Shown here one piece after another: positions 30,001 to 42,000 of a stretch of 64,000 bases of DNA. Source of the DNA: Nitrospirota bacterium. GTDB taxonomy: Bacteria; Nitrospirota; Thermodesulfovibrionia; Thermodesulfovibrionales; Dissulfurispiraceae. Within the stretch, counting starts at the first letter, position 1. Each line of letters begins with the position of its first letter. Position numbers: made by a program. The stretch is from assembly GCA_040758355.1 (NCBI GenBank), contig JBFLWF010000011.1, forward strand, positions 16,041-80,040, read 5' to 3'.

Positions 30001-33000
30001 GCTATATCCGCATCGCCCTTTTCAAGATGTTTAGGCATATCAGCCGTCTCCCTCGCCACCCTGATTTTGATGGATATGTTCAGCTTATCCTCAAGGTATC
30101 TCTTCAATGGAAGGAAATTTTTATACATGGTTGATGGGGACTGAAGGGGGATGAGCATCATGGTTATCTGCTGTCTGGAGAAGGCAGGGGAACTGCAAAA
30201 GAGGATAAGGGCAGTTACCAAGATAATCCTTTTTAAAACAGTGGAATGGAAGAAAAACTTCATATTTAAATTATATAAAAATGGTGTTCTGGATGTAAAC
30301 AAATACATCCAGAACACCAAGGGGAGGGGTCAGATTACCATCTTTGGCCTTTCAGACTTTATCTTTATGGTCTTCTTCTTCTTGATGTAATTGATGACAA
30401 CATCATAAACCGGTGGGCCCGGCTGTTCTTCCATTGACGCCCATCCTGCCATTGTGTATTCCTTATCGGGATGGACATCTTTCCCGCGAACCTTCAAATC
30501 CTGTATCCTGTTACCCATCTTCTCATTCACCTTAATAACAAAACTCATGCCCGCTGTCCTGACCATATCTCCACCCTGCTGTTTATAAGGGTCGTGATGG
30601 AAGATGTTATCAGCTATGTCTTCCATCACCTCTTTCAGGAAGCTGCCTTTCATCTTTGTCTTGTATGTGTTTGCATAGGTGATGGCTGTCTGGGAATAAA
30701 CATCGTCCGCTGTAATCGGGCCCGGAAGAATTGTCCTTCCCCACCTGAACCCGGCGGAAAGGGCAAACTCTGCATCATAATGGTCGATCATTGCCTCACA
30801 GATGAGGTCATCAAAGGTTCCGTCCAGATTGCCCCTGCGGTAAAGGATATCCTCTGTATGTCCCAATACCTCATCAAGCTTTGCCTTGTGGGGCTTTCTT
30901 ATGTCCTCTACGAGCTTTGACATTTCAGGATCCGGGTCTATCATCTCGGACATCACGGGTATGAGTCTGAAGGAGTAATCAACCATCCTTTTATTCTTCA
31001 CTTCGATGTCCATCCTTGAGAGGAACTTCCCATAACAACCCGTGTTTACCACAAGGGTCTTGCCAACAACTATTGGCTTGGGTATTCCATCATGGGTATG
31101 TCCGCCAAAGATTACATCGATGCCCTTAACCCTGCTCGCCATCTTTTTGTCCACATCACAGCCATTATGGGAAAGAACGATAACAAGGTCAACATTCTTT
31201 GCCCTCACCTCATCCACGATCTTCTGCATGTTTTCGTCTTTGATCCCAAATGACCAATTTGGTATGAATCTCCTCGGATTGGCTATTGGCGTATAGGGAA
31301 ATGCCTGGCCTATTACTGCAACAGCAAGACCATTGACTGTTTTTATCTCGTAGGGCTTGAATATGGGGTCTCCCCATGTAGATTCGTGGACATTCTGGGC
31401 AACAAATGGGAAGTTCATCATCTTTATTAGCTCGAGAACGCGCTCCTCAGGATAGGTGAATTCCCAGTGGCCAGTCATGACATCACAGCCAAAAAGATTC
31501 AGAACCCGCACCATGTCTTCTCCGCGGCTCCAGAGGCTCGTTGCAGATCCCTGAAGTGTATCACCGCCATCTATACACAGCACCTTTCCGTGCCTTTCAG
31601 CCTTTACCCTTTTAATCATGGTGGCAATATGGGCCACACCACCCACCTTTCCGTACTTCTTTGCGAGGGCTGAGAAGTTGTCACTGGTGTACGCATAAGC
31701 CTCAAGGGTATCAGGCTTATAGCCATAATATTTCAGAAGCTCCCTACCGGTAAGGTGTGGCGGCTTGCCCTTATTTTCACCCACTCCTATATTTGTATCA
31801 GGCTCCCTGTAATACATGGGGACAAGCTGTGCATGTATGTCTGTGGTGTGTAATATCGTGATATTCCCCTTTGCATCAAATTTGAACAGATTTTCCGGCC
31901 TTAAACTCTTTGCGAGGGCTGCCGGTGATACAGCAGCGGTTCCTGCAGTGAGTGCTGCCATCCAGAGAAATTCTCTTCGTGTAATAGCCATTTTCTCCTC
32001 CTATGAATGAACCTTTGCTCCCATGCAAATTTGATCTTCTGCGTCATCTTCACTATCTTCAAATTTAAAATTCGTGACTTTTTGAGGCGATACATCGAGG
32101 TATCTGCATTCCGCATTAATCCAGCATCTCAGAAACTGGCTGATGGAACTGTAAAATAAACTTCCCTCTGATTTTAGGGCATCTGAGAATGCATCGACCC
32201 ATCTGCCAAGGTGGTCCTGTAAGAATTTCCTCTCAACAGATATGCAGATCTCGACATTATTGCCCTCACCTTTAGATGCTGCCTCTGCTTCCTTAAGTGT
32301 GACAAGGTGCATAAACTCAAGCTCTGCTGCTATATGGTCAGGCCTCTCATTTGTGAAATTCATTCCGAATGCCTTGTAAAACCCTGCAATGTCAGCCATT
32401 TCTTCTGTCGTATAAACAGACAGCCTGGACCTGTAGTACTCGTTCTCGTAAGGAGGACATCCGCTTTTAAGGGTCAAAAATCTAATGTGTTCATCCGCCA
32501 TTTTATCCACATCAAAGGTTTCTGCCTCTTTAAGGTCTTTTAAAGACGCCTCTATCTCTGTCTTTAAGGGATATCTTTCAATCGCCTCCTTTATCTCGTT
32601 TACGAATTCACCGCTCCTTAAAAATCCTCCAAACTCTTCATCCGGATAAAAAAAGCAGTAACTGAGAAGCCTGTACGTCTTTGACCTTTGAAAGGCTACA
32701 TTTGCATTGCTCATTTTTTACTCCTTCTGTTTTTTATCTGCATCCTCTATGTTATGTTGTGGCGGTATACCTGGAGTTTTTTGTCATAAAAAGGTCTGAT
32801 ATACGCAGGCTCTTTTATAGGCACCTTCACAATCTCTTTGCCCTTGACATCGTAACCAGAGGCACTGCCCTTTGAGACCTTGAACTTCGCAGGCCAGAAA
32901 TCAGTGGAACCAAATAGCATCAGCACGCCGAGTAATGTCTCATCGGTGTGTGCATTCCTATAAGTCTTGATCGCATCTTCAACTCCAGGCCCGAACGTCT

Positions 33001-39000: not shown

Positions 39001-42000
39001 AGAAGGCCCGGCACAGTGCCTGCCATAAAAAAGGCTGCACATGCAACACCCGTTGCCTTAATAAACTCTCTCCTCGAAAGTCCAGTACTTTCCTTTGAGT
39101 CTTTCATACATTCCTCCTGTCTTTTATTTCTCTTTTAGCGTGTATAGATATTCGACGATATCATCAATTCGCTGTTCGATCAGCTTCTTTTTCTGATCCT
39201 CGGGCAGATTCTCTTCTCCCTTGAAAATCAGGAGCTTGCTGGCCCCATAAGACGGCATAAAGGGGTCTGCTTTGGTTTTCTTCGCATCGTATATCCACTG
39301 CCTTAATTTCTCCCTATCTTTCGGTGTATCGGCATAGTCTTCCATAATTTCAGCAAAGTCCGGGGAAATGTCACTGGGAAACTCGATACCTTTAAAGTAA
39401 TGACATGCCACACAGTTAGCAACCGGTCTGCCGTGAAAAAGCTTTTTACCATTCTTTGCATCCCCTGCCCTAACAGCTATCGGGAAAGCAACAAATACAG
39501 AGAGTAACATCACGACCGCAATCATAGTGCCGAACCTTGACCACACCTTGCTTTTTTGCATACAAAATCCTCCTTTTATCATTCTCATCATTCAACCTTT
39601 ATGTAGGCAAAGCCTTCATCCTGAAGCTCTACAACCCTTACCTGACCCGAATCCGTGAGTTTGCAGAATGGCTTGAGTTTGGTCTTGTCTATCTTCATTC
39701 TCTTCAGGGTTATATCGCACTGCTCAACTTTCACTCCGTAGCCGTCCACAAGGCTTGCAAGCATCTCATCTATTGATTTTTGCAGCTTTTCGTCTATCTG
39801 CTTTTCTGCGAAATTTGTCCCTGACTTATCCTTCAGCAGAAACTGCACGCATGCCCCGTTGGCAACTACCCTTACATCATAAGAAACATTTTTGGTTGTG
39901 TAGTAATTGACGAGATTGTAGACATTGCGCAGCATGCCGTCAAACCTCTTGGCATCTCCAAAGTCGCAGTGATAAACAGCCTTTCTCTCTTTTTCTTTGT
40001 CAGATGCTTTGCCTATGGATGGCATTAAAAGAACCGCCATGGCAAGACCTAAGATCGAGATTTTTAGAAAACTTCCCCATTTCATATTCTCCCCCTTCCG
40101 CCCCGAAGCATTCAGGGCAACTTTTTGGAATTTACTAACACCCTTTATTTCTTATCCCATCTACATAATTACAGAGCAGGTCCTTAAAGTCCTCCTTCGT
40201 TACAGCACCCGGAACCCTTAATAACTCCTCACCATTGGCATTTAAAAATATAACTGTTGGGGTGCCTATTATCCTGTACTTTTTTGCAAGGTCTTTTTCA
40301 GGCATGCCCATTTTGCGCATCTTTCTTCCCCCATGAACATCTACCCTTATAATATCTGCATTTCTCAGAAGGATACTTTTTATCGACGAGTCATTCATAA
40401 TACTATCCATGCGCTCACACCACCTGCACCCTTCCTCATAAAAATACAACACCTTGATATCGGATGCTGCTGCGACAGATGAAAGCAAGAAAAAAACTGA
40501 AACTATAAGTATTAGCTGTTTCATTACACTTTATAGTTTAGCAAGATATGTGCCATTATTTTTCCTTTATATTTATCAGGATACCCTGTCCTTTCCGGTA
40601 CAGTTCCAAACCATCCAATGTTCAATTCTGAACATAAACGGCGAAGCCGTCTTGCCTCCTAAAAAAATTTGCGGCCATCCATTAAAGAATGGCCGCCAGC
40701 ACGGGTGTTTCTATAATAATGGAGGGTTTATGCATCTTAAACTTTAGCAAATTTTTTGCCAGACTAATTAACCTTATAATTTCAAATAATAATATGATTT
40801 CAAGGCAGGATATCTGTTCAATAAAGTACAGATCAAAACCCAATTATGTCCAAAAATGAACATATGGGCACAAACTGCGGCGGGCATGCAAGTTCTGTCT
40901 CCAGTGCTGACCCGTAAGAAAATTTTTATCCTGTCAGGCCTTTTAGTCTGGATTTTCGGTACTGGATGACTCATCAAGGTCTATTATCTTTTTTCCTTTT
41001 ACATAATCCTTGGTCTTGTAATCTGTTATGGTTAACATCTTCCTGATAATGTTGTTCATCCGGTCACACTGGTTGTTGATAATGCTCATCTCTTCCTCTG
41101 TTAGCGGTTCTTGATGCTCAAACTTCTCTTTAAACAGACCTATAAGGTTATGGACAATTGTCATTGGCTGTCTCATCTCATGGGCTGTTGCCCCTGCCAG
41201 CTCGATGATGGCCGCAAGCTTTTCCCTCTCTATGTCCTTTTCTATGGCGGAACTGAGTCTTTTAGATACTATAACTGTTATCGCGGCAACAAAAACAATG
41301 CTGAGCAAACCTATAGCCAATAAGGAGATAATAGTTTTACGGAGTTCTGCTGAACGTATGTAATCATACCTTTCCATAGGGATGCTTATACTGATGCCGC
41401 CCTTGATATCTCCATAACTATATCCGTGTTTTGCATGGCACTTGAGACATGGTTCCTCTATTTTGAGAGGCGCAATGTATTTAAAGACCCTGCTGCCGTC
41501 TTGTTCCGATATTGCCGCAGTTTCCGCAATTGCACCCTTCTCAAACTCTTTAAGCGCATTCCTTTCCCATGCATCAGGAATATTATATGGATTCACGGGC
41601 TTGAGGCTTATAATACGGAATTTATAACCCTGTCGCTGCATTGTTATTTCTGATAGCTGCCTCGTCATGTATGCCGGATTAATCTTCGTATAGCGTCTGC
41701 CGTCAACCGAAACAATATCACGGCGGGGGTCTTCCAGATATGGATTTGGCGGGGTATCTGGCGAGATCTCCACATAAACACCTCCGTGCTGTGCATTCCA
41801 GAGGCGGGCAACCATTATCTGGTCAAAGAACGCCCCTGCAGTCTCTTTCAATTCATTTATCTGTTCTTTTTTTCTTTCGCTTTGCACCCACAGTACCAAT
41901 GAAAAAAAGAGGATGCTCAGTATAATCACAAAGGGGACTAAAAACGTTACAGTCAGCCTACAAGGACTTTCCGGTTTGTTTATTTCTGAAAAGAACTTTC

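Follow-up and report, generated by a model that had tools for sequence, protein, structure and literature searches.

Genes for a periplasmic nitrate/nitrite enzyme without its haem subunit lie within the thiosulfate-oxidation operon of a groundwater Nitrospirota bacterium

In a groundwater bacterium of the Nitrospirota, nxrA, nxrB and a chaperone gene, encoding an outward-facing nitrate/nitrite enzyme without its usual haem subunit, lie in the middle of a thiosulfate-oxidation operon, an arrangement suggesting that electrons from thiosulfate reach nitrate on the outer side of the cell membrane, bypassing the respiratory chain. Within the window (the whole stretch of DNA analysed, 64,000 nt), soxX-soxY-soxZ-soxA-nxrA-nxrB-chaperone-soxB are open, intact reading frames, all on the − strand, and gene order, strand and the lengths of NxrA (1147 aa) and NxrB (377 aa) were found as a preliminary description had given them. 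The Tat-exported sulfur carrier SoxY with its C-terminal GGCGG arm (38613..39107), SoxZ (38234..38563), the dihaem SoxA (37379..38212) and the Tat-signal-bearing thiosulfohydrolase SoxB (30330..31991) exceeded their NCBIfam cut-offs (TIGR04488, TIGR04490, TIGR04484 and TIGR04486, respectively; SoxB 826 bits, cut-off 550). The gene described earlier as a 'cytochrome c' is present, and its identity can be refined to the monohaem cytochrome c SoxX (39124..39561): it scored 52 bits with TIGR04485, below the cut-off of 61, and was assigned by its best PDB matches, the two solved SoxX chains, and by synteny. SoxXYZAB is complete with its catalytic residues, SoxA keeping both haem motifs, Cys126, Arg232 and Cys237.

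Comparison with the congener G027, whose soxA-soxB spacer is 21 nt, placed the three genes exactly in this spacer as an insert of 5,387 nt (31992..37378, −); DNA similarity ends at 32003 and restarts at 37377, and both junctions lie inside the spacer. The sox genes, said to be rare, are so in the family but not in the order, where SoxB exceeded the cut-off in 23 of 317 genomes. Directly before soxB at the 22 other loci, one of them in a congener, lies soxA (20) or soxZ (2), which supports the view that the nxr genes were inserted into a conserved sox operon; such an insert between soxA and soxB occurs at 1 of the 23 soxB loci. That NxrA occurs in 26 of the order's 316 other genomes, and in none of the four congeners, was reproduced. 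The insertion postdates the divergence from G027, and neither the 35 NxrA loci nor the 24 soxB loci included another sox-nxr operon of independent origin, leaving one lineage.

The locus is not an assembly artefact, because a single 21.9-kb contig from a separate study (run X2) spans all 13,001 bases of the stretch compared, with 214 differing letters, and an X5 contig crosses the soxA-nxrA junction. The same block is retained in a strain 1.6% diverged, and an NxrA at 99% came from another source; one X5 contig, 97% alike, departs from the locus within nxrB at 33243, which could reflect a chimera or a damaged copy. The insert has no flanking repeat family, no transposase or integrase Pfam family was found among the 30 proteins between 18.9 and 50.4 kb, and composition is not odd (GC3 percentile 92-93 for nxrAB and 90 for soxB, codon use within the genome's range); cargo of a mobile element was rejected on these grounds. 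With junctions in the spacer, tight gaps, ribosome-binding sites and no flanking repeats, the placement is beyond chance.

NxrA (33908..37351), a NarG-like Mo-bisMGD alpha subunit by Pfam, tree and its match to Kuenenia NxrA 7b04_B (the E value of 3.5e-285 was obtained again), carries a Tat signal (PF10518 above cut-off, residues 4-22), in support of the predicted periplasmic location. Its residues C65, N68, D69, C73, C113 and D273 align with the positions of Kuenenia Cys67, Asn70, Asp71 and Asp275, and the Asp Mo ligand (D273), substrate Asn (N68) and 3Cys/1Asp FS0 (C65/D69/C73/C113) are retained. NxrB (32747..33880, length from ATG), a NarH-like Fe-S beta subunit (7b04_A, E 4.4e-118), has 15 cysteines in four groups, invariant in the alignment, which fit three 4Fe-4S clusters and one 3Fe-4S cluster. 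Neither gene has a stop or frameshift. NxrA evolves at the rate of its relatives (an end branch of about 0.11; breaks at 3 invariant columns versus 0-14; dN/dS 0.04 against L070), and NxrB shows no excess change despite the loss of its partner (3 near-invariant columns broken versus 0-10 in 35 relatives). The NarJ/TorD-family chaperone (32001..32714; PF02613, TIGR03482 below cut-off) is 56-61% identical to the one preceding nxrA in L001, L016 and L070; it occupies the place of nxrC in the closest relatives and, since it sits 3′ of nxrB, the insert is no unmodified segment of the closest operon type.

The most telling feature of the locus is the loss of the haem-b gamma subunit gene nxrC, given that it adjoins nxrAB in all 35 related loci; its absence beside nxrAB, previously listed as a weakness, is confirmed. 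Six of nine NxrC queries had no match in the genome, a 99.18% complete draft of 93 contigs in which an unassembled nxrC could exist, and the other three matched only a haem-b protein among chemotaxis genes at 21-22% identity. This gene, the genome's only EB_dh gene, was rejected as NxrC on its TIGR03477 score of 37 bits, true gamma subunits scoring 123-159. The absence of nxrC and the unusual divergence of SoxX around its haem are new here.

The closest relatives of the insert lie in a nine-gene Thermodesulfovibrionia operon (L001, L016, L070, G308, G005 and G312) encoding a radical SAM protein, a bd-like membrane protein, two cytochromes c, the chaperone, NxrA, NxrB, NxrC and a 229-aa protein (NxrA 70-84%, NxrB 77-80%, chaperone 38-61%). 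Judged by this similarity it is the likely source, with six of the nine genes missing here and the chaperone now after nxrB; no sox genes were found in the fetched DNA of these loci. NxrA is a tip within a Thermodesulfovibrionia subclade, a branch of 2.1-2.4 changes per column setting it apart from the canonical group (SH-aLRT 100), and groups outside the canonical set with Bipolaricaulota, Chloroflexi, Planctomycetia and Magnetominusculus rows in a tree whose root is unreliable and which holds four canonical rows, assigned by 7b04_B score and family, and no named Nitrotoga or Hydrogenobacter sequences. NxrA shares 39-42% identity with the canonical set from Nitrospiria and scored 952 bits with 7b04_B, a canonical protein 1575. 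These data place NxrA in a periplasmic sister lineage of canonical NXR. The label 'anammox/Nitrospira-type' is thus not borne out, and neither is the proposal that the locus gives the ancestral Nitrospira nitrite oxidase an anaerobic context, the insertion being younger than the G027 split; Nitrospirales nxr is reported to derive from Planctomycetota (D'Angelo et al., PMC10203281).

The genes trx-dsrE-soxXYZA-nxrAB-chaperone-soxB appear to form one unit, framed by a predicted promoter and one strong terminator. Its first genes encode an exported thioredoxin-like protein (40135..40524, −; PF13098), whose position is kept in 19 of 19 sox loci examined, and a DsrE-family protein with a signal peptide (39588..40085, −; PF02635; 89% to G027). 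A sigma-54 (−24/−12) promoter-like site at the head (40540..40555, −) is the sole zero-mismatch match in the window, where the pattern at up to one mismatch matches 10 times, not above chance; a site with no more than one mismatch lies less than 300 nt from this gene in 17 of the 19 relatives versus 0.9% in shuffles. Directly 3′ of soxB, an intrinsic terminator-like hairpin of 16 pairs with a T run (30282..30319, −) is the longest within 25000-42200, a region whose hairpin total is unremarkable (23 versus 16.4 ± 3.9 in shuffles). Intergenic gaps measure 9-49 nt across the unit and 27, 27, 32 and 9 nt from soxA through nxrA, nxrB and the chaperone to soxB, with a ribosome-binding site before each inserted gene. 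The conserved motif, hairpin and tight spacing support the single transcription unit proposed earlier. A PhnD-like gene follows soxB in 14 of 14 sox loci compared, and PhnD-like domains of TtrS-type kinases are reported to sense tetrathionate or thiosulfate (PMC5408782). By this analogy the tandem PhnD-like periplasmic binding protein (28665..30320, −; PF12974; frame from the first TTG, true start probably later) is a probable thiosulfate sensor; it precedes a sensor histidine kinase conserved in this place (27140..28645, −) and a sigma-54 response regulator conserved in sox loci (25751..27088, −; PF00158, PF00072), the probable activator of the sox-nxr unit, which may thus be induced by thiosulfate.

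On balance we favour a soluble periplasmic nitrate reductase that drains electrons from the SoxAX haem, with sulfate, sulfane sulfur and nitrite as products and no direct proton-motive force. A Thermodesulfovibrionales lineage would have obtained an enzyme of the periplasmic NXR/NAR type from a relative in its class, kept only alpha, beta and chaperone, shed both the haem-b gamma subunit with its membrane anchor and the bd-like/cytochrome c module, and brought the three genes under control of a thiosulfate-responsive sigma-54 promoter, that of a sox operon lacking SoxCD. The Tat-exported alpha-beta dimer would accept the two electrons freed when SoxAX joins thiosulfate to SoxY, and these would leave through the SoxX haem to the Fe-S chain of the beta subunit, directly or via a small c-type cytochrome, so that thiosulfate and nitrate would yield sulfate, SoxY-bound sulfane sulfur and nitrite in the periplasm. 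The reaction itself would conserve no proton-motive force, its benefit being a sink for high-potential SoxAX electrons in a cell without an oxygen reductase; sulfane sulfur would pass to Dsr, nitrite to NrfA/octahaem reductase, and quinol electrons to Nap. This energetic role presupposes the potentials generally given for SoxX and quinones. For the nitrate/nitrite couple +420 mV is given, and the purified Kuenenia enzyme is described as able both to oxidise nitrite and to reduce nitrate (PMC8387239); in the sister clade, the enzyme from Hydrogenobacter is described as a periplasmic NAR (PMC6050957).

No cytochrome bd or haem-copper oxygen reductase was found in the genome, which supports nitrate reduction as the likelier direction, as had been proposed. 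Matches above 340 bits to aa3- or cbb3-type oxidases occur in 12 of the 22 other soxB genomes (5 of these typed), and the remaining 10, G027 among them, have neither a clear oxidase nor nxr in the operon. Other sinks at the level of cytochrome c are NorCB and NosZ. In favour of the nitrate reductase reading stand the clean insertion, one promoter and terminator, nxrC loss, the moved chaperone, constraint on NxrA, the SoxX and SoxA changes and the absent oxidases; against it stand the single lineage, the mixed SoxX signal, the weak SoxA significance and the unreshaped NxrB, as well as the oxidase-less soxB genomes without nxr, the other cytochrome c sinks, a Rieske/cytochrome b donor, the 93 contigs and the 97% X5 contig.

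The second-best PDB matches of NxrA and NxrB, far more distant at 180 bits, were chains A and B of 4YDD, which we take to be perchlorate reductase PcrAB. Together with PcrC it is a precedent for a type II DMSO-family alpha-beta enzyme that is soluble in the periplasm and has a c-type cytochrome donor in place of a haem-b gamma subunit; PcrC is a dedicated multihaem cytochrome tied to quinol, unlike the substrate-oxidising SoxAX. The best structural relative, Kuenenia stuttgartiensis NXR-ABC (PDB 7B04), shares the Mo-ligand Asp, substrate Asn and 3Cys/1Asp FS0 and is described as soluble and bidirectional, solubility being predicted here; its electrons leave via the haem b of NXR-C, which is absent here (PMC8387239). 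Common to our locus and the Ca. Nitrotoga fabula NXR or Hydrogenobacter thermophilus NAR, as described by Kitzinger et al. (2018, PMC6050957), are a Tat-exported alpha, a signal-less beta, a chaperone and an Asp-type FS0, and that clade, like our NxrA in a tree without its named members, falls outside the Nitrospira/Nitrospina/anammox group. According to the same source the Nitrotoga locus has a gamma subunit and the Hydrogenobacter enzyme is membrane-bound, whereas our locus lacks a gamma gene and lies within a sox operon. The gene set is that of the SoxCD-less SoxXYZAB of green and purple sulfur bacteria, Thiobacillus and Nitrospirota 9FT-COMBO-42-15, for which two electrons per thiosulfate and sulfane sulfur left to Dsr are described (PMC11033732), but our operon differs in including a predicted terminal reductase.

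SoxX is 62% identical to that of G027, the G027-G314 pair sharing 84%. It carries P67K, L79F, a 2-residue insert, F106T, P108A and T110P around the haem (155-aa ORF numbering), the last three just before the axial Met112; private changes of the mature protein number 31 versus 3 in G027 (outgroup G314, p 8e-7) and cluster at the haem, and the end branch of 0.33 is the longest of 26 rows (median 0.051). The excess is significant with 7 of 16 outgroups, dN/dS is 0.13, dS to G027 is 1.33 versus about 0.6 for soxA and soxB, and some of its states recur in four SoxX proteins from databases, so that allele exchange can explain part of the divergence and the signal is mixed. In SoxA, N186S and K239G fall in columns that show no variation in any of the 68 other rows, and the C-terminal half has 12 private changes versus 1, an excess significant with one of five outgroups. 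A bolder version, possible but rather doubtful, has SoxAX replace the gamma subunit, NxrB docking directly on SoxAX and the remodelled SoxX haem serving as entry to the Fe-S wire; if true, a hybrid thiosulfate:nitrate oxidoreductase would join sulfur oxidation and nitrate reduction without carrier or membrane.

The unreshaped NxrB would also suit co-regulation without wiring, in which an active nitrate reductase draws on a shared cytochrome c pool that receives its electrons chiefly from quinol, by way of the Rieske/cytochrome b complex and two dihaem cytochromes of the nosZ cluster on contig C4. These cytochromes are 58-60% identical to the one encoded immediately upstream of nxrA in loci of the Magnetominusculus type, and a quinol route could conserve energy; yet the candidate donors belong to the nos cluster, a NapA-NapG-NapH cluster already serves quinol-fed nitrate reduction, and the SoxX changes are left unexplained, making this account unlikely. 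An insert that arrived by accident or is decaying, as an incomplete operon passively read through whose enzyme is unstable or idle without gamma, would fit the single lineage, the X5 contig departing mid-nxrB and the normal need for gamma suggested by its retention in all 35 relatives. This account is quite improbable in view of the intact frames, NxrB cysteines and NxrA ligands, the low dN/dS, the tight spacing, ribosome-binding sites, rearranged chaperone and ordinary codon use, and the recovery of the block in the diverged strain and of NxrA from another source.

That the molybdoenzyme substitutes for SoxCD, oxidising SoxY-bound sulfane or sulfite and passing electrons to cytochromes, would fit its operon and a genome in which no soxCD or SoxC-family gene was found (PF00174 gave one 37-position fragment), but is very improbable, because NxrA shows no rate or active-site change versus relatives lacking a sox link, the Kuenenia active site is described as lying down a narrow 25-Å tunnel (PMC8387239) and soxCD-less Sox as normal in basal Nitrospirota (PMC11033732). 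Hardly more credible is a nitrite oxidase feeding NorCB and NosZ at cytochrome c level as in anammox, although the family is bidirectional (PMC8387239), Nitrotoga runs the sister-clade enzyme so (PMC6050957) and both acceptors are encoded, since it would compete with SoxAX for them under one promoter in what is otherwise, with no oxygen reductase found, an anaerobic nitrate-to-ammonium respirer with dsrAB and a putative dsrD.

Accessory sox genes for a tandem rhodanese, DUF302, a presumably SoxW-like thioredoxin and a presumably SoxV-like CcdA lie at 22855..25588 (−; Pfam) in partial synteny with G027 and G314. Completion of sulfane oxidation would call for an oxidative-type Dsr, which has dsrEFH and dsrL but no dsrD. 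DsrAB, DsrC and AprA exceeded their cut-offs, and a 71-aa ORF after dsrB, without a family match, presumably resembles DsrD. With this DsrD-like ORF the dsr set looks reductive-type, like that described for Ca. Nitrobium versatile (PMC8906906).

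On the minus strand of the window, genes for an exported thioredoxin and a DsrE-family protein are followed by soxX, soxY, soxZ, soxA, nxrA, nxrB, a NarJ/TorD-type chaperone gene and soxB (30330..31991), after which come a tandem PhnD-like protein, a histidine kinase, a sigma-54 regulator, a rhodanese, DUF302, a thioredoxin and CcdA. SoxX is the cytochrome c in front of soxY that the preliminary description left unnamed. The molybdoenzyme alpha subunit (1147 aa) carries a Tat signal and the Fe-S beta subunit has 377 aa; their best solved-structure matches are NXR-A and NXR-B of Kuenenia. 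The joint sox-nxr block reported in that description was borne out by a single 21.9-kb contig from another study's run, which carries all 13,001 bases compared, with 214 letters differing, and a contig from a third study spans the soxA-nxrA junction. Run X1 was excluded from the read check as a possible source of the assembly. These independent contigs over the locus led us to reject an assembly chimera as the origin of the block. Contigs joining soxA to soxB across the insert were seen in none of the runs examined, and an insert-free strain, hinted at by word shares in runs X3 and X5, was rejected because nxr is covered and no joint skips the insert. Run X5 also holds a 97%-identical nxrA-nxrB contig (record 24, window 33243-35592) that enters unlike sequence mid-nxrB. 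This contig may be chimeric, the run being small and uneven in coverage, or may come from a related strain whose copy is broken.

SoxB was found above cut-off in 23 of the 317 genomes of the order, and the gene directly before soxB is soxA in 20 of these loci, soxZ in two and the chaperone gene in the genome under study only. In the congener G027 the flanking gene order agrees on either side, the soxA-soxB spacer measures 21 nt, and no NxrA was found. DNA similarity to G027 ends at 32003 and restarts at 37377, indicating that 5,387 nt (31992..37378, nxrA-nxrB-chaperone) were placed within the soxA-soxB spacer. No repeats flanking the insert were found, and its codon use lies inside the genome's range. 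The search for a second sox-nxr operon, which stayed within this phylum and covered the sets named here, found none among the 317 genomes of the order, in 19 genome-contig and 11 metagenome-contig loci, or in 11 + 5 further genomes, the latter lacking soxB; in the neighbouring order soxB occurs in one of 64 genomes, with no nxr within 1.5 kb of it. Sox operons of like layout in three genomes (G097, L060; G096, L062; G536, L155) read soxY-soxZ-soxB, with soxX and soxA not in between, and G097 carries its sox operon and an nxr operon of the clade sister to canonical NXR on separate contigs.

As the preliminary description stated, NxrA in Dissulfurispiraceae has been published, as has soxCD-less Sox in Nitrospirota (PMC11033732, available text). 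A full-text literature search, judged on titles and abstract starts and with subscription journals mostly outside its scope, returned no description of nxr/nar genes within a sox operon, although gene maps in supplements could show the locus; the available portions of related papers, including PMC11033732, PMC12758564 and PMC8906906, do not mention the arrangement. Both halves are of known kinds, and what is new is the graft without a gamma subunit, which is known from a single lineage to date. It shows how groundwater Nitrospirota can come by a sulfur-nitrogen coupling through the recent grafting of three genes.

Just one sigma-54 site in the window is perfect; it stands 16-31 nt ahead of the unit's first gene, and a similar site precedes the equivalent gene in 17 of 19 relatives (0.9% in shuffles). 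Gaps within the unit measure 9-49 nt, and the strongest hairpin of the region stands directly past the soxB stop. From these features we infer that the unit is likely one transcript, turned on by the adjacent sensor set; PhnD-like domains form the sensing part of TtrS-type kinases in the available text of PMC5408782. A sigma-70 promoter scan gave matches at chance level. A second sigma-54-like site (window 40746-40761, minus strand), about 200 nt upstream of the first, is also present in G027 and in the outgroup G314.

The operon probably encodes a periplasmic nitrate reductase fed by thiosulfate. From each thiosulfate SoxAX takes two electrons, which it releases at a c-type haem of about +130 to +210 mV. 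That is too positive to reduce menaquinone, yet far less positive than the nitrate/nitrite couple. The latter stands at +420 mV in the available text of PMC8387239. This output would be matched exactly by a two-electron nitrate reductase that shares compartment and transcript with SoxAX: thiosulfate and nitrate would give sulfate, sulfane sulfur and nitrite, without net protons and without charge transfer across the membrane. The cell would benefit indirectly, in that Dsr would get sulfane sulfur, the ammonifying reductases would get nitrite, and quinol would be spared for Nap, Nrf and Nos. In oxidase-free anaerobes the SoxAX electron acceptor is usually drawn as a mere arrow to 'cytochrome c', and the genes here name a candidate. 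An enzyme co-regulated with sox that takes its electrons from another donor is a rival reading that we hold to be rather unlikely.

The closest NxrA relatives (70-84%) are encoded in a nine-gene operon of a radical SAM gene, a bd-like membrane protein, two cytochromes c, a chaperone, nxrA, nxrB, nxrC and a 229-aa gene. The haem-b gamma gene nxrC adjoins nxrAB in 35 of 35 loci, which are related and not independent (42 nxrA+nxrB rows minus three canonical, two cut by a contig end and two duplicates), and their fetched DNA contains no sox genes. In the genome under study nxrC is absent from the locus and the chaperone gene takes its position; the genome likewise lacks matches to the bd-like protein, the 139-aa cytochrome and the 229-aa gene. 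When the whole genome (93 contigs, 99.18% complete) was queried with nine NxrC sequences, six found nothing and the other three gave a 21-22% match to one EB_dh haem-b protein between chemotaxis genes, which scored 37 bits on the gamma-subunit model (123-159 for three true gamma subunits) and 25 bits against Kuenenia NXR-C (comparison, 103 bits). None of its homologues was found in the four congeners, but of the 10 other genomes across the order in which they occur one has NxrA; given this last count and its poor gamma score, it was rejected as an NxrC orthologue, though it may still be a trans-acting partner. This exported protein, together with a Tll0287-like cytochrome, lies between two chemoreceptor-like genes (contig C7, 76591-82647), possibly as a redox-sensing chemotaxis set. 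The electrons of Kuenenia NXR pass through the NXR-C haem (PMC8387239, available text), and with a subunit of that type gone a c-type haem must serve as the electron entry. For a thiosulfate-fed enzyme, entry would be by SoxX directly or by a small cytochrome; that SoxX itself feeds NxrAB is a tentative proposal at somewhat long odds. The set is small, soluble and rebuildable in vitro (five Sox proteins plus the alpha-beta dimer), and offers a direct test of an NXR-type enzyme without gamma haem and of what fixes its direction.

For nine of 11 operon genes, DsrE likewise, the genome under study and G027 are closer to each other than either is to G314. SoxX is the exception, being 62% identical to that of G027 although G027 and G314 share 84%. 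With G314 as outgroup, mature SoxX has 31 private changes (three in G027). It breaks five columns that are invariant in 17 others (0-1 broken by each of those), and of 26 rows its end branch is the longest; the database has no SoxX whose identity to it falls in the gap from 62% to 100%. P67K, L79F, a two-residue insert, F106T, P108A and T110P fall in the stretch from the haem motif to the axial Met, presumably at haem-pocket positions. The AlphaFold model of SoxX is weak round the haem (pLDDT 49-66, residues 41-70), and a fold search with it gave no match at E 0.001. The C-terminal half of SoxA shows 12 changes versus one, with catalytic residues retained. SoxAX changed along the insert-bearing branch. 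An adaptive reading is a lead, not proof, and is weakened because SoxX dS is raised too (1.33), dN/dS (0.13) gives no sign of positive selection, p < 0.05 was reached with seven of 16 outgroups for SoxX and one of five for the SoxA half, and some SoxX states are common to four database proteins.

NxrA retains the residues aligned with Kuenenia Cys67, Asn70, Asp71 and Asp275, and NxrB retains 15 cysteines. NxrA breaks three otherwise invariant columns (0-14 in 19 relatives) and NxrB three near-invariant ones (0-10 in 35 relatives); nxrA dN/dS is 0.04 against the closely related locus L070, with dS near saturation. Remodelling of NxrB after gamma loss was rejected, the total change being ordinary; P168S alone is notable (Pro in 35 of 35 relatives), beside a cysteine which we take to be an FS4 ligand. 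The enzyme looks intact and its substrate unchanged. Next to this conservation, a passive insert, for which the single known lineage might be cited, seems improbable, and action of the molybdoenzyme on a sulfur substrate, as its setting among sox genes could suggest, very improbable indeed.

Across 401 genomes of the phylum, NxrA matches form one 56-83% set and one 39-42% set, and a member of the latter scores 1575 bits against Kuenenia NXR-A versus 952 for the NxrA studied here. Two quick trees, whose root is unreliable, place it as a tip among Thermodesulfovibrionia rows, with four canonical rows (Nitrospira/Nitrospina/anammox group) beyond a branch of 2.1-2.4; rooting on distant Mo enzymes gave branches over 6. 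By these sequence comparisons it is not a canonical NXR. Its position, in a tree without a named member of that clade, fits the sister clade holding Nitrotoga NXR and Hydrogenobacter periplasmic NAR (Kitzinger et al., PMC6050957, available text). The proposal that the locus gives a context for the ancestor of the Nitrospira nitrite oxidase therefore fails, and the finding, limited to one lineage, has no bearing on the origin of Nitrospira nitrite oxidation; the accessible part of PMC10203281 derives Nitrospirales nxr from Planctomycetota. Nitrite oxidation by the enzyme itself we regard as very unlikely. Within the family, an NxrA relative at 57% identity (G062, contig C48, 20426-23857) has one in-frame TAG, and the NxrA of G540 (L016), a genome in the same class, is of the sister lineage.

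The genome encodes dsrAB, a dsrD-like ORF, dsrC and aprA, a long NapA grouped with NapG, NapH and an octahaem cytochrome, as well as nrfHA and norCB. The nap cluster (contig C10, 27735-35729) comprises the octahaem cytochrome, a monohaem protein, a 1111-aa NapA-like protein below the NapA cut-off, napG, napH and two small napD-like ORFs. It is absent from the four congeners and 84% identical in G540. Since G540 also has an NxrA of 83% identity, the two nitrate reductases may have come from one donor lineage. On contig C4 (29920-45596), an NAD(P)/Fe-S oxidoreductase, a Rieske protein, cytochrome b, a hexahaem and two dihaem cytochromes stand ahead of nosZ, which is of Tat type, and of nos accessory genes. 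Both dihaem cytochromes share 58-60% identity with the cytochrome preceding nxrA in Magnetominusculus-type loci, so that the same module seems to work with NXR-type enzymes in some lineages and with N2O reductases in others. SoxC, a full cytochrome bd and a clear NirS were not found in the genome, and its sole haem-copper match above cut-off is NorB-type. Oxidase-type matches above 340 bits occur in 12 of 22 other soxB genomes (two typed as aa3, three as cbb3) and none in the other 10; the missing oxidase therefore does not demand the insert. Elsewhere in the window (12385-16609, minus strand) lie 11-haem and 4-haem cytochromes, an NrfC-like Fe-S protein, an NrfD membrane protein and a TorD-like chaperone. 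None of these has a molybdoenzyme gene as its immediate neighbour; a TtrA-like gene is encoded some 14 kb farther on in the contig, where the window no longer reaches.
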